Counted from the stretch's first letter, positions 3,540-31,409 are shown. The stretch: DNA of 57,056 nucleotides from an uncultured virus (IMG/VR IMGVR_UViG_3300028840_008158) (IMGVR_UViG_3300028840_008158); one strand, 5' to 3'. The notes: generated by a model not told the origin, from the letters alone. Translations and numbers: made by a program.

Positions 3540-3616
3540 CCAGGGGTGGTGTAGGTCGGTCTGCACGCCTGCCTGAAGAGCAGGAGGTACTGGTTCGATT
3601 CCAGTTCCCTGGGCCA
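3540..3616 (+). tRNA. tRNA-Phe(GAA)
   Basis: cloverleaf, anticodon arm CCTGC-CTGAAGA-GCAGG, TTCGATT, CCA. Confidence 0.85.
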
Positions 3617-3620
3617 GTTC

Positions 3621-3696
3621 CCAGGGGTAGTGTAGTTGGATGGCACGCGACCCTGAAGACGTCGAGGCGGCGGTTCGAATCCGCCCCCCTGGACCA
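3621..3696 (+). tRNA. tRNA-Phe(GAA)
   Basis: CCAGGGG/CCCCTGG acceptor, loop CTGAAGA, TTCGAAT, ACCA. Confidence 0.85.
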
Positions 3697-6037: not shown

Positions 6038-6751
6038 TCAATCATAAAGCCCGATGGCGTGCTTGTACATGACCGAGAGCTTGTCCTCCAGGCCGCATTT
6101 GTTGCATCGCATCCTCTCGAGGTTGGCGGTCAGCTCCTCGGGCGTCGAGTCGATCGTACCGATCTTGTGGCAGAGCGGCGATTCGCCCGCGACGATGGTC
6201 CCGTCGACGTTGATGGACGGCGTACACATCTTGGCGCCCTGGCGCAAGAACTTGATCGCCTCCCTCACGTCCCCCGTGGAACGCGTCACGCTTCGCAGGT
6301 TGAAGCACGTCGGGGCTTGCTTGTCGCATTTGATCTCGTTGGCGACGGCCCTCCCCAGCGGAATGATCGTCCTTATGCGGTCCTCATACCGGAACAGGGG
6401 ATGATCGAACTTCTCGATCCTGGTCTTGTAGAAGCGCGGGTCGGCAGTGACCTGGACCCAAATCCCTAGCCTGATTACCTCCTCGCGCAGCGCGTCATCT
6501 TCCAGGAACATGCCGTTGCTGAGCATGACGACGCGGGACAGTCGTTCCGTGGCGACGGATAGGAACTCCAGCGCCCGGGGATGGTCCATGGGTTCGCCCC
6601 CGGAAACGAGCATGAAAGACAACGTGTTGGAATCAATGAAGTCGATGATCTTTCGGAACGTCTCCATGGTCATGTGCTCCCCGGAAGGGGACGCCTCGAC
6701 CATGCAATGAGGGCAGTTCATGCGGCATTTGTGGGTTATACGCACGAGCAT
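6038..6751 (-). CDS. radical SAM protein with C-terminal Cys cluster
   Basis: CRMNCPHC (CxxxCxxC), SGGEP, C-terminal CxxC. Confidence 0.85.
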   Translation of the reverse strand: MLVRITHKCRMNCPHCMVEASPSGEHMTMETFRKIIDFIDSNTLSFMLVSGGEPMDHPRALEFLSVATERLSRVVMLSNGMFLEDDALREEVIRLGIWVQVTADPRFYKTRIEKFDHPLFRYEDRIRTIIPLGRAVANEIKCDKQAPTCFNLRSVTRSTGDVREAIKFLRQGAKMCTPSINVDGTIVAGESPLCHKIGTIDSTPEELTANLERMRCNKCGLEDKLSVMYKHAIGLYD

Positions 6752-6803
6752 GCCTCGTCCTCCTGCCCGTGGGGACGGGCCTTCTTTTCACCTGACGTCC
6801 GGC

Positions 6804-6831
6804 TTGACATCGCTTGTCATGGGGGTAGGAT
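6804..6831 (+). promoter_or_regulatory. sigma70-like promoter
   Basis: TTGACA-16 nt-TAGGAT. Confidence 0.6.
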
Positions 6832-6851
6832 GACGTTGGAGGTGGAACGTC

Positions 6852-7025
6852 ATGAAGACCAGGAAAGAGGCGCGTTTCGGGACGCCGGAAGAGGTTCGTA
6901 ACCAGGTCGAGGAGTTGTACCAGAAGTACGGCTTTGGGAAAACGAACAAGAAGCCCAGGCTAAACGAGGACGAGCCCCCGGCGTGGGTCGTGGAAATCGC
7001 CGAGAAGGCGGCGAAAAAGGATTGA
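6852..7025 (+). CDS. 57-aa hypothetical protein (not in ORF track)
   Basis: GGAGGT RBS; MKTRKEARFGTPEEVRNQ...AEKAAKKD. Confidence 0.55.
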   Translation: MKTRKEARFGTPEEVRNQVEELYQKYGFGKTNKKPRLNEDEPPAWVVEIAEKAAKKD

Positions 7026-7030
7026 GTTGT

Positions 7031-7103
7031 GCGTCGATAGCTCAGCGGCAGAGCGTTCGGCTCTTTAACCGAATGGACGCAGGTTCGAGCCCTGCTCGGC
7101 GCA
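7031..7103 (+). tRNA. tRNA-like RNA, Lys-like, 8-nt anticodon loop (CTCTTTAA), no encoded CCA
   Basis: GCGTCGA/TCGGCGC acceptor, canonical D and T arms, TTCGG-CTCTTTAA-CCGAA. Confidence 0.7.
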
Positions 7104-7117
7104 TTGAAAATTGAGGT

Positions 7118-7193
7118 TGTTGGGTAGCTCAGCGGTAGAGCGTTCGGCTCATAATCCGAATGGACGCAGGTTCGAGCCCTGCCCCAACAACCA
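7118..7193 (+). tRNA. tRNA-like RNA, Met-like, 8-nt anticodon loop (CTCATAAT)
   Basis: TGTTGGG/CCCAACA acceptor, TTCGG-CTCATAAT-CCGAA, ACCA; arms almost identical to 7031-7103. Confidence 0.7.
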
Positions 7194-7215
7194 TCATATT
7201 ATCAAGGAGGGGATC

Positions 7216-8607
7216 ATGAACGAGCGTTTCAAGACCCGCGACGAATTCCTAAAGTACCTCCACGGGACGCTGGACGAGCGCGCCCGGCCGGAGGACGTCG
7301 GCCAGGCCATCCTGGCCGGAGAGAAGTTCCTTCCGCTCGCGTTGCCGAAGGCGCTCCGCAAGCGGCTCTCCTCGATGAAGCCGCTCCCGAGCTACATGTC
7401 GGCCGACTTCAAGCGCGTCGTCGGCGCCGAGAGCGCCGTCAAGGTGGCCAAGGACATCTTCCCCAAGAACGGCATCCCCGTCAAGGGGCTCAGCCCGGAC
7501 GACCCGGCGTCGATCCGCGCGTTCATCTCGAGGGCGTCGAAGGCTATCGGCAGGAAGGTCCGCGAGAACTTCGCCCAGAGGAAGAACCGGAAGGATCGCC
7601 GGAAGTCCAAGATCAAGCTGTCCAAGCGGCAGTTCAACAAGCTCTACAGGTTCATTTGCAGGCTCGAGGAGAAGGCCGAGCGCATGGAGCGCGAGGGCAT
7701 CCGGCGCGACATGACGATGGCGGCCAAGTCCAAGCTCGCCAGCAAGATCTCCTGGAGGGACTTCAAGAAGTCCGCCGCGTCCGCCGCGTTCATCGCCTAC
7801 TACACGGCGACCAGCAACCGCCGCAGCGAGTTCACGTGGGGCAAGCAGTCTCGCGCCTACGACAAGGTGGCGGAGTCCCTGCTCGAGGAGGTATGCGCGA
7901 AGGACAAGTCCTCCAATTGGTTCGCCATCTCCCACGTCTTCACGCCGCAGCGCGTGGTCTCCAGGCTGACCGACAAGCAGAAGGGTCGCCTGGCGGGGCT
8001 CTACTTCGGCGTGGTCGAGCAGGCTTGCCTCATCATGGAGGAGGTCTGGCGCGACAACGACATCGCCCGCGACACGATGATCGTGAAGCGTGGCAACGAC
8101 AGCTCGACGTGGAACACGATGGCCGGCGCCTACAACAAGGCCCGCGAGGCTTGGTTCGCCATCCTCAGGGACATGGGCATGGACGCCGTCATCGAGGCTT
8201 GCTGCCCCGGGAAGGCGCTCCGGCTCATGGCCGCCGACGTCGCGTGGATGCATCGCCACTTCAACGAGGGGCTCGACCCGGACACGTCCGTCTGGAACGA
8301 GCTGCCGCTCCCGTGGGACGTCGTGCTCCACGAGGTTCCGTGCCCGCGCAAGATGGTCCAGGCGGTATGCGACAAGCACAAGGTCAAGTCCTCGGGCGGC
8401 TGGGTCGCCGCGCGCGACATCAAGGTCGCGCAGGCGTTCAAGGCCACGCCGGAGCTGGTCCACGGCGTTACCGTCTCCAGCCCGTCCCTCGGCAAGATCC
8501 TAAAGAAGTCGGGGGCGTTCTCGGGCAAGGGGCTCAGGCGCGACGCCAAGATGCCCGGCATCATCAAGAAGCACAAGAACAGGCGCGTGGTCGTCGACAA
8601 GGAGTGA
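7216..8607 (+). CDS. 463-aa basic hypothetical protein
   Basis: AAGGAGG RBS, strong GC3 coding bias; no motif I can assign. Confidence 0.85.
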   Translation: MNERFKTRDEFLKYLHGTLDERARPEDVGQAILAGEKFLPLALPKALRKRLSSMKPLPSYMSADFKRVVGAESAVKVAKDIFPKNGIPVKGLSPDDPASIRAFISRASKAIGRKVRENFAQRKNRKDRRKSKIKLSKRQFNKLYRFICRLEEKAERMEREGIRRDMTMAAKSKLASKISWRDFKKSAASAAFIAYYTATSNRRSEFTWGKQSRAYDKVAESLLEEVCAKDKSSNWFAISHVFTPQRVVSRLTDKQKGRLAGLYFGVVEQACLIMEEVWRDNDIARDTMIVKRGNDSSTWNTMAGAYNKAREAWFAILRDMGMDAVIEACCPGKALRLMAADVAWMHRHFNEGLDPDTSVWNELPLPWDVVLHEVPCPRKMVQAVCDKHKVKSSGGWVAARDIKVAQAFKATPELVHGVTVSSPSLGKILKKSGAFSGKGLRRDAKMPGIIKKHKNRRVVVDKE

Positions 8608-8778
8608 GGCGATGGAGCGCTGCGTTTGCCGGTCCCGCGTCCCCCTCGGATTGATGTCCGTCGTTTCCGAGGACGCTGAGATCCGGGCCCAGCGGGCGTG
8701 GGAGAGGGGCGTCGGACGGACGCACGGGCGCGCTATTACCGACTTCATCATCAAGAGGATGGGACGAAGGGGGTTCCA

Positions 8779-10355: not shown

Positions 10356-10426
10356 TGCCCGGTAGCTCAACGGCAGAGCAGCCCCCAGAGAGGGGGAAGA
10401 TGCGGGTTCGAATCCCGTCCGTGGTA
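10356..10426 (+). ncRNA. tRNA-like element with 5-nt loop (AGAGA) instead of an anticodon loop
   Basis: TAGCTCAACGGCAGAGC D arm, CCCCC-AGAGA-GGGGG, GCGGG-TTCGAAT-CCCGT; bulged acceptor, no CCA. Confidence 0.6.
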
Positions 10427-10427
10427 C

Positions 10428-10492
10428 TGGTTCTCGTCCAAAGTAGGACGCCGCCCGCAAGGCGGAAATCGGGGTGCAAGTCCTCGGAGCCA
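10428..10492 (+). ncRNA. tRNA-like element with 5-nt loop (CGCAA)
   Basis: TGGTTC/GAGCCA stem, GTCC/GGAC D arm, CCGCC-CGCAA-GGCGG, CGGGG-TGCAAGT-CCTCG. Confidence 0.55.
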
Positions 10493-10761: not shown

Positions 10762-10770
10762 AGACGAGAC

Positions 10771-10858
10771 GGAAGGCGAACCGGACGAGAGCGCCGGGGC
10801 TGGTTTGAAGCCAGCGCGTGCCCTCGGGCATGGGGGGCAGGACCTCCGCCTTCCGCCA
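10771..10858 (+). tRNA. tRNA-Ser(TGA)
   Basis: GCTGG-TTTGAAG-CCAGC, long variable arm, atypical T arm, GCCA. Confidence 0.75.
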
Positions 10859-10859
10859 C

Positions 10860-10947
10860 GGAAGACGAACCGGACAAGCGAGCCGGGACTGGTTCGAAGC
10901 CAGCGCGTGCCCTCGGGCATGGGGTGCAAATCCTCCGTCTTCCGCCA
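10860..10947 (+). tRNA. tRNA-Ser(CGA)
   Basis: loop TTCGAAG, long variable arm, GCCA; paralog of the preceding gene. Confidence 0.8.
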
Positions 10948-11249: not shown

Positions 11250-11309
11250 GGGGGCGTCGTATGGCTGGCAGCCATGAGGTCACGGGTTCGAGCCCCGTCG
11301 CCTCCACCA
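11250..11309 (+). tRNA. D-armless tRNA-Ala(GGC) (60 nt; functional or pseudogene)
   Basis: GGGGGCG/CGCCTCC with G3:U70, only TCG between acceptor and anticodon arm, loop CTGGCAG, intact T arm, ACCA. Confidence 0.65.
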
Positions 11310-11317
11310 CGAGATTT

Positions 11318-11392
11318 GGGGGCGCATGTACCGTAGGGGCGAAAATCCCTCGCACGGATTTTGGGTGGGTGCAACTCCCATCGCCTCCACCA
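11318..11392 (+). tRNA. tRNA-Ala(CGC)
   Basis: G3:U70, AATCC-CTCGCAC-GGATT, ACCA. Confidence 0.75.
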
Positions 11393-11770: not shown

Positions 11771-11988
11771 ATCCACTGGACCAGCGTCCATGAATCAGGT
11801 CGGGAACCTGGGAATACTCTTCGGCTGAACGAATGGAATATTTCGTTGACGAAGACCCGGTCCTTCTCGACCATCAGATGAGGCGGCACGTGTTTGGCGA
11901 CGAAGTACCGGCCCTTCTTATGGGGGCCGGACTCCAAGGGGCAGATAGTCGTCGCGAAGTGGATCGAGTATCGCATGCAGGATCATAC

Positions 11989-12076
11989 GGAAGGTGAACC
12001 GGACAAGCGCGCCGGGGCTGCTTGGAAGGCAGTTCGTGCCTTAGGGCATGAGGGGCGGCACCTCCTCCTTCCGCCA
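11989..12076 (+). tRNA. tRNA-Ser(GGA)
   Basis: GCTGC-TTGGAAG-GCAGT, long variable arm, atypical T arm, GCCA. Confidence 0.75.
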
Positions 12077-24398: not shown

Positions 24399-24716
24399 AT
24401 GGAGTTCCGGCGCGTAGAGGTCAAGAAAACCATACGGCACCAGGAACGGGTGGCCGACCCCCTCGAGGCAGGAAAGATTTTCGAGGCGCTTCGGGACAAT
24501 CGACTCGGCTTTTCCATGAGGTACGGGCAAATGGGATGGCTTCGTTCTTGCAGCGTCGTCGAGCTGAAGGATGAAGCGGTCAGGATTTTTTCGCGCCAGC
24601 CATCCAAGGTTTACGTCTGGGCCGACTTCAAGGACATCGAGAACGTCGAGGTGGAGAGCAACTGCGACTTTCTCGTCGAGGAAGACGACCAGGGCCGGTG
24701 GGCCAGGATCATCTGA
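24399..24716 (+). CDS. hypothetical protein
   Basis: ORF right after TATCAT (possibly leaderless). Confidence 0.5.
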   Translation: MEFRRVEVKKTIRHQERVADPLEAGKIFEALRDNRLGFSMRYGQMGWLRSCSVVELKDEAVRIFSRQPSKVYVWADFKDIENVEVESNCDFLVEEDDQGRWARII

Positions 24717-24735
24717 AATTGACCAAGGAGGAAAC

Positions 24736-26715
24736 ATGTCCGACTCGTTGATCAACTCGTTGCGAGAACACGCCGGGAAGCGAGCCCAGGAGAAGAAGGC
24801 GATCTCCATGGAGGAGTACATCGACAAGGTCCGGGCGAACCCCGGCGTCGCCGGCGGCTCCCACCGCCGGGTTTACGACATGATCCGCAGTTACGGGGTC
24901 AAGATCGACGCGGAGAGCGGGAACGAGACGTACCTGTTCTTCGAGCGAGAGCTGTTCGGCATCGAGGACTCCCTGAGGGAGGTCATGGAGTACTTCAAGG
25001 GGGCCGCGCTCGGTTCCGACGTCTCGAAGCGCTTCCTCCTCGTGTACGGACCTCCATCGTCCGGGAAGTCCAACCTCGTCTCCATGATCAAGGACGCCAT
25101 GGAGGCGTGGACGCTGACCGACGAGGGGGCCGTCTACGCCGTCGAGGGATGCCCGATGAACGAGGAACCCTTGCACGCCATCCCGAAGGACTTGCGAGCC
25201 GAAGTGTCCAAGGACCTTAACGTGACCATCGAGGGAGAGCTGTGCCCCGTCTGCGCTATGAGGCTGCGCCAACTGGACGGGGACTTCATGAAGCTCCAGG
25301 TCAAGCGGATTTACTTCTCACAGCAGGCGCGACTCGGGCTCGGTTCCTTCGTGCCCTCGGATCCGAAATCCCAGGATCTCGCGGAGTTGATCGGGTCGGT
25401 GGACTTGTCCAAGATCGGGGAGCACGGGACGGAATCCGACCCTCGGGCGTGGAAGTTCGACGGGGAACTCAACGTGGCCAACCGGGGGATCATGGAGTTC
25501 ATCGAGATACTGAAGGTCGACCCGAAGTTCCTGTACGTCCTGCTCACCGCGACGCAGGAAAAGGTCATCAAGACGCCTCGCTTCCCGCTGATAAGCTGCG
25601 ACGAGGTCATCCTCAGCCATACGAACGAGAGCGAGTACAAGGAGTTCGTGGGCAACCCCAAGAACGAAGCGCTGATCGACCGCATGATCGTCTGCAAGAT
25701 ACCGTACAACCTGAGGGTCAAGGACGAGGTCCGGATATACGAGAAGTTGCTGCGGGGGGGCGGCCTCGCGGGCGTTCACGTCGCCCCGCACACGCTGCGC
25801 GTCGCGTCCATGTTCGCCGTCCTGAGCAGGATCGAGGACCCCAAGGACCAGAACCTCGACAAGGTCAAGAAGATGAAGCTCTACGACGGCGAGGAGGTCG
25901 AGGGCTTCAGCCTGAAGGACGTCCCGCGCATCCAGAAGGAGAGCGGAGGCACCGAGGGCATGGACGGCGTGAGCCCGAGGTACATCATCAACCGCCTTGT
26001 CACGACGGCCATACGCGGCATCGAGGAGGAGGACGAGGAGGAACGTAAGAAGGAAAAGACGCCGGACTTCGTGCAACGGAAGCGACACGTCAAGTTCATC
26101 ACCCCGATACACGTTCTTCGAAGCCTCAAGGAAGGGCTGAGGACGTCGAGCAAGTTCAAGCCGGAGGAGCGCACTCGTTACGAGGACCTGATCTCGGAGG
26201 TCCGTAAGGAGTTCGACGAGATCGCCAAGAACGAGGTCCAGAAAGCGTTCTTCGTGTCGTTCGAGGACGAGGCCAAGACGCTTCTCGACAACTACATCGA
26301 CAACGTCGAGGCGTTCCTGGAGAAGACGAAGCTCGAGGACCCGATCACCAAGGAGGAGATCGAGCCCAGCGAGCAGCTCATGCGCTCGATCGAGAACAAG
26401 ATCGGCATCAGCGACACCGGGAAGGACTCCTTCCGCAACGAGATCATGCGTAAGGTCGCGGCCATGACGCGCCGGGGCGACAAGTTCCGCTACGACAGCC
26501 ACGGGAGGCTCCGCGAGGCCATCGAGAAGCAGCTCTTCGAGGACCGCAAGGACCTCATCAAGATGACGATCACGTCGAGGACCAAGCGCGATCCCGACGA
26601 GCTGAAGCGGATCAACCAGGTCGTCGACACGCTATGCGAGAAGCACGGGTACATCCCGGAGAGCGCGAACGAGCTACTCAAGTACGTCAGCTCGATCATG
26701 ATGAGGGAAAAATGA
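24736..26715 (+). CDS. prkA: PrkA/YeaG family AAA+ serine protein kinase
   Basis: GPPSSGKS, CPMNEEPL, DPRAW.FDGELNVANRGIMEFIE, GMDGVSPRY. Confidence 0.92.
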   Translation: MSDSLINSLREHAGKRAQEKKAISMEEYIDKVRANPGVAGGSHRRVYDMIRSYGVKIDAESGNETYLFFERELFGIEDSLREVMEYFKGAALGSDVSKRFLLVYGPPSSGKSNLVSMIKDAMEAWTLTDEGAVYAVEGCPMNEEPLHAIPKDLRAEVSKDLNVTIEGELCPVCAMRLRQLDGDFMKLQVKRIYFSQQARLGLGSFVPSDPKSQDLAELIGSVDLSKIGEHGTESDPRAWKFDGELNVANRGIMEFIEILKVDPKFLYVLLTATQEKVIKTPRFPLISCDEVILSHTNESEYKEFVGNPKNEALIDRMIVCKIPYNLRVKDEVRIYEKLLRGGGLAGVHVAPHTLRVASMFAVLSRIEDPKDQNLDKVKKMKLYDGEEVEGFSLKDVPRIQKESGGTEGMDGVSPRYIINRLVTTAIRGIEEEDEEERKKEKTPDFVQRKRHVKFITPIHVLRSLKEGLRTSSKFKPEERTRYEDLISEVRKEFDEIAKNEVQKAFFVSFEDEAKTLLDNYIDNVEAFLEKTKLEDPITKEEIEPSEQLMRSIENKIGISDTGKDSFRNEIMRKVAAMTRRGDKFRYDSHGRLREAIEKQLFEDRKDLIKMTITSRTKRDPDELKRINQVVDTLCEKHGYIPESANELLKYVSSIMMREK

Positions 26716-26912
26716 GAAAAATCCTTGAGAACTTTTGCCTGGCGTTGAGCTGGTCAGCATTGCCGACCCTGGCGGTCCTTGCCGGGTCGGCCAACGTACC
26801 CGGCGAGCAGTTAGTCGGGGGAAGTCACCTGGTTCTAGGGATCATGATCTCGTCTTTCGTCACGGGGATCGGGTTCATCCTGCTTTCGTTCGTGAGGGAG
26901 GCGGAGAAGTAA
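26712..26912 (+). CDS. small membrane protein
   Basis: two hydrophobic stretches, coupled start. Confidence 0.5.
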   Translation: MRKILENFCLALSWSALPTLAVLAGSANVPGEQLVGGSHLVLGIMISSFVTGIGFILLSFVREAEK

Positions 26913-27589
26913 TGAAGACAATCCTCGGTCCGACGGATGCCAAGGTCGTCAAGCGCGAGGAGGCTCCCATCCACGATCCCGTCATCGACGCGCTTTACCG
27001 TCCGCGCCCGCGGTTCGTAACGTACCTCGAGACCGAGGTTAGACATAGGCTTCTGGGAGCCCCTGAAGCGGAGTCCGTTACGGCAGTCGTTACGGAAATC
27101 GCTAAGCCGGATAAGGAGGGAGAGGGGGCCATTCCCATCAAGACCAGGTATCCTCAAAAATTGTTGTACGGCAGGTGGTGTTGCAACTACCACGTCAAGA
27201 CGGTGGCGTCGTTGACGCCTGATCAGGCCAAACGAATCCTGTTTGGGACGGACGACCGGGGGGAGACGTCGAACCATCATTGGGAATTTACGAAGCCCAC
27301 GACCTTGGAGGCGACCTTGACCTACCCGCTGTCCGTGGACGTCAAGATAACTGTTTCGCCCCCCATGCGCGTCAAGGACGAGGAGGATGAGTTCCCCGGA
27401 ACAGGGGGCAGCTTCAACAGCTTCGGGCTCTTCCTGCTGGCCCTCGCCAAGGAGTACGAGCGCATCTACGCGGAGGACAACGTCGACCCGTCCAAGTACG
27501 GCATTTGGGGGCATGCCCTCGGGGACCTTTTCTTCGAGGTCGTGGAGGTATGCAAGGACGGCCGCGTTTACGTCGGCATCGGATCGTAA
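26912..27589 (+). CDS. hypothetical protein
   Basis: coupled ORF, C-terminal YGIWGH.LGDL.FE. Confidence 0.65.
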   Translation: MKTILGPTDAKVVKREEAPIHDPVIDALYRPRPRFVTYLETEVRHRLLGAPEAESVTAVVTEIAKPDKEGEGAIPIKTRYPQKLLYGRWCCNYHVKTVASLTPDQAKRILFGTDDRGETSNHHWEFTKPTTLEATLTYPLSVDVKITVSPPMRVKDEEDEFPGTGGSFNSFGLFLLALAKEYERIYAEDNVDPSKYGIWGHALGDLFFEVVEVCKDGRVYVGIGS

Positions 27590-27608
27590 GGCCAGGAGGG
27601 GTTCGCGC

Positions 27609-28787
27609 ATGGGAATCCTTAGGAGCAACCTCCCCTATGACCTGCGTCGTAGGGGACAACTGGACTCCAATCGCCACCAGAAGAAGATCAAGGAGGCCAT
27701 CAAGAAGAACCTCCACAAGATCATCTCCGAGGAGGCGATCATCACGACCGACGGGAAGCGGACCACCCGCGTCCCCGTCAAGTACCTCGACAGCTATTAC
27801 TTCCGTCACGGGTATCCCAAGGACGGCGCGGGGCACGGCGAAGGCAAGGAGGGGGACATCCTCAAGAAGGGCAAGAAGAAGGGCGAGGGAGGGGGAAAGC
27901 AGCCCGGTAACGAGCCCGGGATCGACATCTACGACGCCGAAATCACGGTCGAGGAGCTCACCCAGATGATGCTGGAGGACCTCGGGTTGCCGTGGCTCGA
28001 GAAGAAGGACAAGGTCGAGATCGTCACCACGGAGACCAAGTTCACGGACCTTCGCAAGAAGGGCATCATGTCGAACTGGGCGAAGCGCGCGACCGTCATG
28101 GAGAACATCAAGCGCAACGCCAAGGAGTCGAACGACCCGCGGTTCAAGGGTCTCACGGACGACGACATGCGGTTCCGGACGTGGGACGACATCGTCGAGC
28201 GTCATTCCAACGCGGTCGTCTACCTGATGATGGACCGGAGCGGGTCCATGGACGACCACAAGCGGTACCTCTGCAAGGCCACCTTCTGGTGGATATGCCG
28301 TTTCCTGGAACGCAAGTACGACCACGTCGAGGTGGTCTTCATCGCCCACGACGCGGCGGCGCAGGTCGTCCCGGAGAAGGACTTCTTCGCGATATCCTCG
28401 TGGGGCGGCACGAAATGCTCCTCGGCCTACGACCTGGCCTGGAAGGACATTCGGGAGTCTCGGCCCCGGAACTTGTGGAACGTGTACGTCTTCCACTTCT
28501 CGGACGGGGAGAACTGGCGCGAGGACAACGAGAACTGCGTCAAGGTCGTCAAGGAGATGATCGAGCGCGTCAACATGCTCGCGTACGGGGAGGTTCATTA
28601 CGAGGGCGACGACGACGAGGAGGACGACAACAACAGCCCATTCTTCACGCCCCTGATGAAGACCTTCAAGGACAGGATCGGAGACCATGATCGGCTGCTT
28701 CTCGCCCGCATGTCGCGCAAGTCGGACGTGTTCAAAACCCTAAAGGCGTTCCTCGGCGTGGAGGATGACAAGGAGGCGGCCAAGTGA
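27609..28787 (+). CDS. yhbH: YeaH/YhbH (DUF444) vWA-domain protein
   Basis: RHQKKIKEAIK, MMDRSGSM, FIAH, GGTKCSSAY, YVFHFSDGEN. Confidence 0.9.
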   Translation: MGILRSNLPYDLRRRGQLDSNRHQKKIKEAIKKNLHKIISEEAIITTDGKRTTRVPVKYLDSYYFRHGYPKDGAGHGEGKEGDILKKGKKKGEGGGKQPGNEPGIDIYDAEITVEELTQMMLEDLGLPWLEKKDKVEIVTTETKFTDLRKKGIMSNWAKRATVMENIKRNAKESNDPRFKGLTDDDMRFRTWDDIVERHSNAVVYLMMDRSGSMDDHKRYLCKATFWWICRFLERKYDHVEVVFIAHDAAAQVVPEKDFFAISSWGGTKCSSAYDLAWKDIRESRPRNLWNVYVFHFSDGENWREDNENCVKVVKEMIERVNMLAYGEVHYEGDDDEEDDNNSPFFTPLMKTFKDRIGDHDRLLLARMSRKSDVFKTLKAFLGVEDDKEAAK

Positions 28788-28789
28788 GC

Positions 28790-29920
28790 ATGCGCGTCGT
28801 CTCCCTGTTCGCCGGGATAGGCGGCTTCGACCTGGCCATGGAAAGGGCCGGGATGAAGGTCGTCGCCCAGGTCGAGAAGGACAAGAACTGCCTGAAGCTA
28901 CTGGGGGAGAAGTGGCCCGACGTCCCCCAATTCGACGACGTCTGCACCGTGGGGAAACACAACCTCCCCGAATGCGACGTGATATGCGGCGGATTCCCGT
29001 GCCAGGACGTCAGCGCCGCCGGGAAGCGGGCCGGCTTGGCCGGGGAGCGATCAGGACTCTTCTACGAGATGGGGAGGATCATCGATGAACGAAAGCCTAC
29101 TTGGTGCATTTGGGAGAATGTTCCCGGATTACTCAATTCCACAAACGGAAGAGACATTCTCGCGGTGGTCAAGGAGTTTCACGAACTCGGGTTTGATGGA
29201 GGATGGCGAGTTATTGATGCTGAGTACCTCGGAGTGGCCCAGCGAAGAAGAAGGGTCTTCGGTGTGTTCGCTCGCCGAGATATTGGAGCCCGAAGTCCCG
29301 GAGAAGTACTATCTGTCTTCGAAGGCGTGCGAGGGCATCCTCCGCCGCGCCGAAAAGCGAGGAAACAAGCTCCCGGAACCGTTGAAGAAAGCCCTGGAGC
29401 AGGTGGCTCGAAAGTGATCTCGTTCTCCTGCAAGGATCACGGGGCCGACGCCCGCGACGACGTGGCTCCGACCCTGCGCAGCATGAACTACGTCGACTCG
29501 CACATAAGCGGGGGCGGTCACGTCGCGGTGGCGTTCAAGCCGTCTCATTATACTAGGGACAAGGACGGCTCGCCCTCCGAGATATTCCCCCCGCTGTCGG
29601 CCGACGCGGACAAGGGCGATCAAGACCCGGTAATATTCCAGTCTCGGATCGCCCGCAACGGGCGCGGGCAGCCTGAGGACGTTTGTCCGGCGCTCAACGG
29701 GAGCGACGCCGGGGCCACGTCCGACATGAGACCGTTGGTGGCGACCAAGTCTTGCGTCAGGAGGCTGACGCCCGTCGAATGCGAGCGCCTCCAGGGGTTT
29801 CCCGATGACTGGACCGCGGGTTTCAGCGACAGCGTACGCTACAGGATGCTCGGGAACGCCGTGGCGGTCCCCTGCGTCGAGTGGATAGCCAGGAGGCTGG
29901 CCAATGTCGAAGAGTCTTGA
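28790..29920 (+). CDS. dcm: C5 DNA cytosine methyltransferase (alpha chain)
   Basis: FAGIGG, GFPCQ, WENV, QRRRR, RRLTPVECERLQGFPD, GNAV. Confidence 0.92.
   Translation: MRVVSLFAGIGGFDLAMERAGMKVVAQVEKDKNCLKLLGEKWPDVPQFDDVCTVGKHNLPECDVICGGFPCQDVSAAGKRAGLAGERSGLFYEMGRIIDERKPTWCIWENVPGLLNSTNGRDILAVVKEFHELGFDGGWRVIDAEYLGVAQRRRRVFGVFARRDIGARSPGEVLSVFEGVRGHPPPRRKARKQAPGTVEESPGAGGSKVISFSCKDHGADARDDVAPTLRSMNYVDSHISGGGHVAVAFKPSHYTRDKDGSPSEIFPPLSADADKGDQDPVIFQSRIARNGRGQPEDVCPALNGSDAGATSDMRPLVATKSCVRRLTPVECERLQGFPDDWTAGFSDSVRYRMLGNAVAVPCVEWIARRLANVEES
29085..29417 (+). CDS. nested alternative-frame ORF, M.EcoHK31I beta-polypeptide-like
   Basis: GGAGG RBS inside dcm; CSLAEILE...KYYLSSKACEGILRRAEKRG. Confidence 0.75.
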   Translation: MNESLLGAFGRMFPDYSIPQTEETFSRWSRSFTNSGLMEDGELLMLSTSEWPSEEEGSSVCSLAEILEPEVPEKYYLSSKACEGILRRAEKRGNKLPEPLKKALEQVARK

Positions 29921-31409
29921 CGAGCGCTTCGAGGAGATCGAGGCGCTGGCGGACAAGATGGGGCTCGACCCCTTCCCGGTCATCTACGAGGTCGTCCCGA
30001 GGGAGATCATCTGGGACGTCTCCTCGTACGGGCTCCCTACCCGCATGTCGCATTGGTCGTTCGGGCGTTCGTTCGTCCACCAGAAGACGTACGGGGAGAT
30101 GGGGTTCTCCAAGATCTACGAGCTGATCCTGAACAACGACCCGTCCTACGCCTTCCTAGACGAGACGAACCCGGACGTCGTCAACCTGCTCGTTTGCGCG
30201 CATTGCCTGGGTCATTCGGACTTCTTCAAGAACAACGCGATGTTCCGACGGACGAACAGGAACATGGTCAACCAGGCGGAACGCAACGCTCACGCGATAG
30301 AGGCGCTGAAGGAGAAATACGGGATCGAGGTCGTCGAGGACTGGATGGACGTGGCGTTCTCCATTGACCGGCACATCGACTGGAACATGGGGGAGAACAG
30401 GCAACGCTACCCGCAACAGGAACACGTCTTCAAGAAGATCGATCCTCTTCCGTACGCGGACTTGTTCGGCGAGGACATGAAACCGCGAGTGAAGCACGAG
30501 ATCAAGAACAAGACGTTTCCGCCCCATCACGAGCGCGACTTGCTCTGGTTCCTGGGGACGTACGCGAACCTGCTGCCGTGGCAGCGCGAGGTATTCGCGA
30601 TGATTCGTTCGGAAAGCTACTACTTCTACCCGCAGTTCATGACGAAGATCATGAACGAGGGTTGGGCGAGCTTCTGGCACGCCGAGTTGATGCTCAACTA
30701 CGAGGGCTTGACGTCCGCCGAGCACATGGACTTCGCCAAGGCTCACGCGGGCGTCGTCAGCGCGGGACGAGGTGGATCCCTGAACCCGTACTACGTCGGG
30801 TTCCGCGTCTTCGGCGACATCAAGAAACGCTGGGACGAGTACCACGAGGAGGGGCTGAAGGACAAGGCGTTCATGGCCGGCGACGACGTCGACAAGTACG
30901 ACGACGAAGGGAACGTCGTCATGTCGAAAATGACGGGCGCCCAGAAGATGTTCCAGGTGAGGGCGGACGACGACGACGTGAGCTTCATCCAGAACTACCT
31001 GACGAAGGACCTCGCCCAGGACATGAAGCTCTTCAGGTTCGGGACGCGGGGAACCACCGAGGATCCGGAGGAGGACGACATCATCCTGAAGTCCCGCGAC
31101 CTGGAGAAGATCATCGAGAGCATGACCACCCGGCTGCATAACTACGGGGTTCCGCCGATCTACATCAAGGAGGTCAACGACAAGGACCGGGCTCTCGTAC
31201 TCGTCCATGACGGCTCGGACAAGACCCCCCTCGACGAGACGTACGCGAGGGGAACCCTGACCTACATCGCCAAGACGTGGGGACACAAGGTGTCGCTCTA
31301 CACGAGGGATCGGTTCGGGAAGCCGCTGGTCTACGTCCTGGACGAGAAGTCCTCCGTCAAGAAGGTCCAGGATGGCGACGACCAGACCGTAATCGAGGTC
31401 GAGATATGA
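29904..31409 (+). CDS. spoVR: SpoVR/YcgB family protein
   Basis: HWSFG, IYELILN.DPSYAFL, AHCLGHSDFFKNN, YFYPQ..TKIMNEGWAS.WH, NPYY.GF. Confidence 0.92.
   Translation: MSKSLDERFEEIEALADKMGLDPFPVIYEVVPREIIWDVSSYGLPTRMSHWSFGRSFVHQKTYGEMGFSKIYELILNNDPSYAFLDETNPDVVNLLVCAHCLGHSDFFKNNAMFRRTNRNMVNQAERNAHAIEALKEKYGIEVVEDWMDVAFSIDRHIDWNMGENRQRYPQQEHVFKKIDPLPYADLFGEDMKPRVKHEIKNKTFPPHHERDLLWFLGTYANLLPWQREVFAMIRSESYYFYPQFMTKIMNEGWASFWHAELMLNYEGLTSAEHMDFAKAHAGVVSAGRGGSLNPYYVGFRVFGDIKKRWDEYHEEGLKDKAFMAGDDVDKYDDEGNVVMSKMTGAQKMFQVRADDDDVSFIQNYLTKDLAQDMKLFRFGTRGTTEDPEEDDIILKSRDLEKIIESMTTRLHNYGVPPIYIKEVNDKDRALVLVHDGSDKTPLDETYARGTLTYIAKTWGHKVSLYTRDRFGKPLVYVLDEKSSVKKVQDGDDQTVIEVEI

Follow-up and report, generated by a model that had tools for sequence, protein, structure and literature searches.

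The window analysed here is a 57,056-nucleotide (nt) stretch of DNA from an uncultured virus (IMG/VR IMGVR_UViG_3300028840_008158), part of a contig that may reach 546,851 bases. In its first 9 kb, a promoter-like site is followed by a small open reading frame (ORF), two tRNA-like RNAs with 8-nt anticodon loops and the gene for a basic protein (Table 1). Comparison with related loci showed that genes for this protein family and for this family of tRNA-like RNAs almost always occur together; judged by sequence, they are a real and widespread protein-RNA pair, here called the unit.

Table 1. Features of the locus, with positions counted from the first base of the window (aa, amino acids).
Feature	Positions	Strand	Remarks
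Sigma70-type promoter-like site TTGACA-16-TAGGAT	6804..6831	+	10/12 consensus positions; putative function
57-aa ORF	6852..7025	+	Non-conserved; probable passenger outside the unit
tRNA-like RNA 1	7031..7103	+	Family scaffold, without encoded CCA; loop CUC-UUU-AA
RNA 1 anticodon loop, 8 nt, CTCTTTAA	7061..7068	+	Fixed CUC and variable UUUAA
tRNA-like RNA 2	7118..7193	+	U1-A72, A73, encoded CCA; loop CU-CAU-AA with an extra U
RNA 2 anticodon loop, 8 nt, CTCATAAT	7148..7155	+	Fixed CUC and variable AUAAU
Shine-Dalgarno-like AAGGAGG ahead of ATG	7204..7210	+	Read from the sequence
Partner protein, 463 aa	7216..8607	+	Basic, mostly helical; no recognised family or solved fold

Both cloverleaves were called 'tRNA-???' with four-base anticodons by ARAGORN, and Rfam scored them as tRNA with 59.9 bits (RNA 1) and 62.0 bits (RNA 2). 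Together with direct reading of the sequence, these results confirm the original prediction of two cloverleaves with 8-nt loops, which share most of their bodies (93% identity over 58 nt) and are followed 22 nt later by a large basic ORF, with a predicted isoelectric point (pI) of 10.1. The predicted promoter is also present, as a consensus match only, in a class with three sites found against 0.9 expected in shuffles. By its sequence, the loop of RNA 1 is CUC followed by positions 34-38 of tRNA-Lys(UUU), and that of RNA 2 is a mimic of tRNA-Met(CAU), a loop also present in the related loci L104 and L105. Sequencing or assembly error was ruled out as the source of the 8-nt loops, as had been argued from the sequence: contigs of two public runs span positions 6700-8700 with no differences and no gaps (either run may be the source of the window DNA), and L104, whose protein is 60% identical, carries the same two loops and a third 8-nt loop. 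No terminator-like site was found between the window RNAs and the partner gene.

Other details of the prediction had to be revised. The supposedly buried ACC tail of RNA 2 is in fact an intact A-CCA end (7190-7193), and the proposed 10-bp extension of its acceptor helix, which the predicted fold does show, needs the 5' leader, so that it concerns the precursor only. The 57-aa ORF exists, but it is not a member of the conserved unit: in L104 a promoter of the form TTGACT-16-TAGGAT lies immediately before the three RNAs, with no ORF between them, and across 316 loci the ORF had no significant match except an identical copy, which rules it out as a third component.

The partner gene was found in 348 genome-collection stretches, 15 viral loci, 241 metagenome stretches and 7 plasmid records; 80 of the genome-collection and 80 of the metagenome stretches were among the loci analysed. 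In a first set of 95 loci, which includes two duplicates, family RNAs were present at all 95, 90 of them detected by a pattern matcher and the other five by R1, our model of the RNA family. This model gave 88.2 bits to RNA 1 and 93.0 bits to RNA 2 of the window, both of which were used in building it. In the metagenome set, which was not used in building R1 and contains the DNA of the window itself as well as some loci already present in the first set, a family RNA was found at 74 of the 80 loci; four of the six misses (L106-L108 and L112) are cut off by a contig end where the RNA would be expected, and a fifth sequence (L116) ends 127 nt past the gene match. The search for tRNA-like neighbours of homologs of the partner gene, suggested in the original prediction, thus returned one to four copies per locus, many of them with expanded loops. 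The co-occurrence strongly supports the idea of a structural RNA partner for the protein, but the upstream position is not part of it: most bacteria have the RNAs downstream of the gene, and the upstream order occurs here and in several other phage-like loci.

The reverse test gave a similar picture. The RNA pattern occurred in seven IMG/VR contigs, all seven also with the gene, and in five of the genomes sampled (401 Planctomycetota and 401 Bacteroidota), four times beside a full gene and once beside a C-terminal remnant. In G275 (L183:3809-4043) an intact RNA adjoins a 40-codon C-terminal remnant of the deleted partner gene, and G228 has only an N-terminal gene fragment and no RNA. A looser CAC pattern detected one degenerate cloverleaf without the gene (L316), which was not counted as a family member. 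In five whole genomes, R1 scored family RNAs at 83-94 bits, the tRNA-Asn of one host at 79 bits and the other tRNAs listed at 69 bits or less; from the scores of host tRNAs, the RNA body is closest to tRNA-Asn or tRNA-Lys. No neighbour family was conserved in more than 3 of the 95 loci, and the unit therefore appears self-contained.

Relatives of the partner protein numbered 1204 among 8000 candidates scored, and the family forms 572 clusters at 50% identity, nearly all of about 420-500 residues. The 77 labelled rows of a protein tree span 14 phyla; this tree, made by a quick method from 92 rows with two duplicate loci and short matches omitted, was used only for loop turnover between close proteins. 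The gene is rare, being found in 3/401 Planctomycetota genomes (one as a fragment) and 2/401 Bacteroidota genomes with seed genomes counted, and no match was found among the cultured phages of INPHARED. The family is basic (median pI 9.2 for 240 proteins), residues 101-180 of the partner include 28 K/R against 8 D/E, and R203, D216, W299, N300, N307, R310, K333, D341, W367 and W396 are conserved in at least 115 of 127 diverse rows.

Structure prediction with AlphaFold2, another of the proposed checks, gave a confident and mostly helical model (predicted local distance difference test 92.7 for the whole and 95.5 for residues 165-445), but the Foldseek search that was to accompany it returned no usable match in the PDB (best E-value 0.043). 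The protein matched no Pfam family at E<=0.05 and nothing in PHROGs, NCBIfam or PADLOC; the same Pfam library did detect TROVE and vWA_Ro60 in a neighbour protein. A PDB profile search gave only HutP at E ~1, taken as chance. With VIA-align, the best Z was 7.4 for the whole model (75 residues, root-mean-square deviation 2.1, an Avd/S23-type four-helix bundle) and 5.1 for residues 165-445, both within background, a level that proves neither differing folds nor a new fold. The ESM Atlas gave weak integrase-like feature matches at 0.77 or none, no ligase or transferase fold was present among the structural matches, and no longer fused form was found among 8000 candidates of 857-2445 residues, which is weak evidence. 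Matches over the length of the partner were obtained with Foldseek to two uncharacterised giant-virus proteins, A0A3G4ZSE3 of Edafosvirus (E 3e-13) and A0A5K0U9D9 of Yasminevirus (E 1e-11), with TM 0.63; they resemble the partner in predicted fold and are 14-15% identical in sequence. Yasminevirus has 70 tRNA genes (PMC11946776).

Covariation supports all four helices of the cloverleaf. In 94 aligned RNAs, 99.1% of the cells were paired, and compensatory changes were seen in 16 of 21 pairs, including all seven acceptor pairs; the first matcher required six of the seven acceptor pairs, which biases the paired percentage of the acceptor helix upward, and the compensatory changes are not made by this filter. 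Constant parts are the D arm, the T arm, the variable loop (UGGAC) and, where the anticodon loop begins, GG-CUC; the acceptor stem is free. In the anticodon arm, the stem closes with two constant G-C pairs, which are followed by the equally constant C32, U33 (replaced by A in a small subgroup) and a further C. A variable loop with GGAC was found in 181/226 family RNAs against 2/123 ordinary tRNAs, and a T loop ending in AGC in 171/226 against 2/123. The canonical elbow is retained, with its D and T arms, and the Rfam tRNA model (RF00005) gave 48-73 bits to family RNAs in eight loci, which Rfam assigned to tRNA only and not to YrlA.

The anticodon loops vary in length, with 8 nt in 103 of the 226 RNAs, 7 nt in 95, 9 nt in 23, 6 nt in three and 10 nt in two, so that 131/226 are not of 7 nt; the 8-nt loop noted in the original prediction describes both window RNAs but fewer than half of the family. 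CCA is encoded in 13/226 family RNAs; where neighbouring tRNAs could be compared, it is encoded in 5/19 RNAs whose neighbours encode it and 0/18 whose neighbours do not. The discriminator base and the first acceptor pair are independent of the anticodon: N73 is G in 19, A in 14, U in 12 and C in 3 of the Lys-type RNAs, and G in 16, U in 13, A in 8 and C in 5 of the Gln-type RNAs. A pyrimidine was found at position 37 in 44/198 family loops against 2/123 ordinary tRNAs in the same loci. Charging appears unlikely from these sequences because CCA and acceptor identity are not kept, and quadruplet decoding appears unlikely as well; the suggestion that the RNAs are quadruplet decoders or +1 suppressors is thus weakened by the loop lengths, the pyrimidines at 37, the scarcity of CCA and the free discriminator. 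A family RNA with a 14-nt loop was observed on a Miltoncostaea plasmid (L204:3853-3940), near RlaP and two peptidyl-tRNA hydrolase genes. In L204, L205 and L206 the RefSeq locus tags skip numbers exactly at the RNA positions; these gaps suggest that the RNAs were annotated as RNA genes in the original records, the table itself listing none.

Past the fixed CUC, three to seven variable bases copy real anticodon positions 34/35-38. Loops of 7 nt parse as CU, a C-anticodon and positions 37-38, and loops of 8 nt as CUC, a U- or G-anticodon and positions 37-38 (UUU-AA, UUC-AC, GUC-AC, UCU-AA, UGG-GU, UCG-GA and GUG-GA). Read in this way, G37 follows G36 as in genuine anticodon loops. In the first set, G37 was found in 16/18 8-nt loops with G36 against 0/42 after other bases, and in 13/14 against 1/33 of the 7-nt loops; the held-out set gave 14/17 against 0/22 and 17/18 against 1/29, and counting each distinct loop once over all data gave 8/11 against 0/40 and 6/8 against 2/23, respectively. 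Ordinary tRNAs in the same loci obey this rule more loosely (19/41 against 5/81), and other reading frames of the loops gave a weak or null signal. The first variable base of the 103 8-nt loops is U in 77, G in 24, A in two and C in none, a bias that resembles that of wobble bases, with C-anticodons using the 7-nt form. The Met loop of the window is one of only two among these 103 with its extra base on the 3' side.

In 65/198 cases (33%) the variable segment was identical to positions 34-38 of some ordinary tRNA encoded at these loci, against 5.3% for random five-mers, and 56/198 (28%) were perfect complements of some tRNA loop window, against 16% for random ones. Direct copying is preferred over pairing with tRNA loops because its excess over random is about 6-fold, compared with 1.7-fold. 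Among four hosts with a CUG-GA bait and an identified tRNA-Gln(CUG), three have CUG-GA in their own tRNA. Lys (48) and Gln (42) make up 90 of the 198 readable loops, and Glu another 14. The loops differ in 27 of 34 pairs of RNAs with identical bodies, and in the first set none of the 36 multi-RNA loci repeats a loop. Close proteins switch bait from Asp to Lys or from Lys to Glu, and loop change at a nearly constant protein was seen in the Dysgonomonas/Prevotella and Aquimarina pairs. By these comparisons, the loop evolves far faster than the RNA body.

RNA-repair genes adjoin at least 12 loci (~12/178), in a scan that covered 189 proteins, a part of all neighbours, with no background control for repair-gene frequency. 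They encode RtcB (L003 as a fragment, L004, L019 and L110), RtcA (L004 and L045), a kinase with Thg1 (L021 and L026), Thg1 (also L092), Hen1 (L026 and L049), a TROVE protein (L073), KptA (L175) and RlaP (L204). These neighbours may place the unit in tRNA-damage biology, and they leave a role in repair possible. Sub-threshold YrlA-like or tRNA-like RNAs were observed near RtcB genes of Bacteroidota (L298:870-966, L299:6575-6686, L303:5987-6050, L305:6046-6148 and L306:382-507), two of them adjoining Band-7 genes.

The window contains 24 tRNA calls by ARAGORN, and its genes include DNA polymerase III alpha, ribonucleotide reductase, RecA, UvrD and PrkA/YeaH/SpoVR by family library matches. We infer that the source is a jumbo phage. 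The PrkA, YeaH/DUF444 and SpoVR genes are grouped at 24571-31409, and a radical SAM gene (6038-6751, minus strand) lies a short way upstream of the promoter, and genes of this type are also neighbours of L053 and L091. Several other tRNA-like elements were found in the window. Three long-arm tRNA-Ser-like elements (10770-10858, 10859-10947 and 11988-12076) are 82-83% similar and have loops with TGA, CGA and GGA, CCA ends and odd T loops; they were missed by ARAGORN at default settings and by Rfam even at E<=1. Two short elements ending in TCCACCA (11250-11309 and 11318-11392) scored below threshold for the tRNA-like domain of transfer-messenger RNA (tmRNA; 38 and 23 bits), and weakly for permuted tmRNA; they are possibly a split tmRNA or alanine-accepting mini-RNAs. 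Two adjacent tRNA genes (3540-3616 and 3621-3696) have GAA in the loop and unusual bodies starting with CCAGGGG, the first being called Gln by ARAGORN at low threshold only, and a further element (10357-10429; Rfam 39.5 bits) has the loop CAGAGAG and no CCA.

Bacterial immunity and toxin warfare commonly end in the cutting of tRNA. The account that we favour, and to which we give an even chance, is that the unit is a ribonucleoprotein displaying interchangeable anticodon baits for tRNA-cutting enzymes, as an inhibitor or a tripwire. The basic helical protein would bind the fixed RNA body and keep the RNA out of translation, and enzymes whose point of attack on host tRNAs is the anticodon loop (toxins, defence nucleases) would recognise the exposed bait. 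The complex could tie up the nuclease as a decoy or inhibitor, a version that we hold tentatively, or cutting of the bait could release an activity of the protein as a tripwire, which we consider the more doubtful of the two. In the phage-like window, with its Lys(UUU) and Met(CAU) baits, the unit would add to the large tRNA array in protecting translation. Baits are preferred because a constant body suits one partner, and diversified, authentic-looking and arrayed loops suit outside enzymes of differing target. PrrC cuts tRNA-Lys(UUU) and VapC cuts tRNA-fMet (PMC10264068), and anticodon nucleases are favoured as the enzymes baited because these targets match the two baits of the window. The earlier proposal of decoys or sensors for anticodon nucleases fits with the mimicry and hypervariability of the loops; the steps beyond co-occurrence and sequence anatomy are those that we infer.

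Several observations weigh against this account. The extra loop base might abolish recognition by a nuclease, which would be undesirable in a decoy. The fourth host with a CUG-GA bait has A37-C38 in its tRNA-Gln(CUG), where the bait has G37-A38, and two UUG hosts agree with their baits at position 37 and not at 38. Many Streptomyces loops look drifted, and these together with the pyrimidines at 37 indicate that some baits are not faithful copies. The family RNAs are related by descent, by which the loop statistics overstate independence, and the loops new to the held-out set, too few alone, gave 1/2 against 0/7. At one metagenome locus (L138) the gene is intact, and its available flanks, 219 nt upstream and 1.2 kb downstream, contain no RNA. 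No recurrent anticodon nuclease or defence gene was found beside the unit, the frequency of repair genes beside it has no control, and the library and fold searches recognised no catalytic or effector domain in the partner that could provide the output of a tripwire.

Among the other explanations, a cofactor for RNA repair seems to us the least improbable, although still unlikely. The complex would help RtcB, enzymes of the Pnkp/Hen1 type or related ones to restore anticodon-cleaved tRNAs, acting as scaffold or model substrate or donating loop nucleotides, with CUC as the junction and the variable part as the piece restored. The repair genes described above are in line with this, and the variable parts begin at position 33, 34, 35 or 36 of the real loop, like cut products; Ro60/YrlA and b7a-tRNA were themselves proposed as repair cofactors (10.1101/312249). 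Such neighbours are, however, confined to the small share of loci given above, the structural searches matched the partner to no ligase or transferase fold, and none of 50 Bacteroidota RtcB loci had a family RNA (best 48.9 bits with R1). We consider it improbable that the RNA acts on the ribosome, entering the A site at the matching codon after CCA addition, where four-base reading (C-N34-N35-N36 with codon and G) would shift the frame, or marking ribosomes in want of a tRNA that has been destroyed; the protein would serve as its carrier. The canonical elbow, the constant C at the 5' end of the putative anticodon, the G37 after G36 that decoding tRNAs also carry and the encoding of CCA in some RNAs with CCA-encoding neighbours (5/19) and in none of the others compared (0/18) would suit this role; it is hard to reconcile with loops of 6-10 nt and one of 14 nt, pyrimidines at 37, the absence of CCA from 14/19 RNAs despite CCA-encoding neighbours and a discriminator and first pair unrelated to the anticodon, and the partner gene is an unbroken frame in which no frameshift is needed.

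A selfish toxin-antitoxin pair with type III logic, in which the RNA would neutralise a protein toxin, perhaps directed at tRNA, by mimicking its substrate, appears somewhat less probable again. The unit is two-part, patchy (2-3 of 401 genomes per phylum sampled) and found on plasmids and phages, the RNA outlives the deleted gene in G275 and intact genes almost never occur without RNA; against this, up to four different loops per protein and loop change at a near-constant protein would be unneeded for a single toxin, there is no terminator-like site between the RNAs and gene of the window, and no toxin family was matched in Pfam, NCBIfam or PADLOC. TrmD and the t6A pathway recognise the dinucleotides that are kept in the loop, and the RNA could be a sponge for host tRNA-handling enzymes (synthetases, or modification enzymes reading G36-G37 or U36-A37), or else a kissing partner of tRNA loops. 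We give this the lowest standing, as a very improbable reading: conserved host enzymes give no reason for rapid loop turnover, and the perfect complements that would favour kissing are in far smaller excess than direct copies.

In a bolder reading, held tentatively, the unit may be a programmable trap or tripwire for tRNA damage, in which one protein of a possibly new fold and an array of tRNA-shaped guides with a swappable anticodon segment would sense or neutralise chosen anticodon nucleases. Changing three to six bases would then retarget the unit, like the constant scaffold and variable spacer of other RNA-guided systems, and specificity should follow the loop if a few loop bases were exchanged. 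To our knowledge, the counter-measures to tRNA cutting are resistant replacement tRNAs and repair enzymes; the unit would point to a third strategy, in which a dedicated protein has an array of exchangeable anticodon look-alikes. The unit is found in at least 14 bacterial phyla, on plasmids and in large phages, and giant viruses have proteins related to the partner in predicted fold. It also yields a new RNA family and a confidently modelled protein without a solved relative. For annotation, ARAGORN labels the 7-nt members as ordinary tRNA-Lys, -Gln or -Thr, and those with 8 nt could pass for natural quadruplet decoders. No description of the pair was found in the literature searched or in Rfam 15; one may exist in Burroughs and Aravind 2016 or its supplement, or in papers behind subscription.

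By analogy, the unit would resemble in its working the Ro60-YrlA system and the predicted Band-7/b7a-tRNA pair, but it lacks those of their defining features that could be compared. Type III toxin-antitoxin systems have the known toxins ToxN, CptN, TenpN and AbiF and pseudoknot repeats, whereas no such match was found for the partner in Pfam, NCBIfam or PADLOC and the RNA is a cloverleaf. Burroughs and Aravind 2016 reportedly predicted a pair of b7a-tRNA with an SPFH/Band-7 protein, encoded beside RtcB. In the unit, no Band-7 domain was found in the partner or in the 189 neighbour proteins scanned, and RtcB is present at four loci only. At two loci with Band-7 and RtcB, the nearby RNAs scored 20-28 bits with R1, against 58-96 for nearly all family members, and one of them looks YrlA-like.

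Like the unit, Ro60/Rsr (TROVE) and YrlA (RF02553) combine a helical protein with an adjacent RNA that mimics tRNA and conserves its D and T arms; they occur in both bacteria and phages, sometimes near RtcB (PMC4201824 and 10.1101/312249). YrlA was also proposed as a competitive inhibitor of an anticodon nuclease (PMC7790460). According to 10.1101/312249, the acceptor stem of YrlA is closed and an anticodon loop is absent, whereas the family RNA is a full, unpermuted cloverleaf with an open acceptor end and a variable, arrayed anticodon loop. Ro60 has TROVE and vWA domains, neither of which the unit's protein matches in Pfam; with no TROVE match and with this RNA shape, the comparison with Ro60/YrlA drawn in the original prediction stands as an analogy only. 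The HEAT-like ring fold of Ro60 was not among the structural matches listed for the partner, a list that may omit families.

Decoding tRNAs differ in other ways. The family RNAs share the cloverleaf and the D/T elbow of a canonical decoding tRNA, and not its 7-nt loop with purine 37 and matching acceptor identity. Suppressors of +1 frameshifts and quadruplet-decoding tRNAs likewise combine a normal tRNA body with an anticodon loop of 8 nt. In the family RNAs, a fixed C on the 5' side of a normal anticodon provides the extra base, loops range over 6-10 nt and charging signals are not conserved. A tRNA of phage T5 is said to act against PARIS. Nuclease-resistant phage tRNAs resemble the window RNAs in being phage-encoded and tRNA-shaped, with altered anticodon loops in a tRNA array and Lys and Met anticodons, and they are working tRNAs that take the place of cut ones (PMC10264068), whereas the family RNAs share a single body whatever the anticodon, lack acceptor identity and in most cases CCA, have a dedicated partner protein and are distributed mainly in bacterial genomes.

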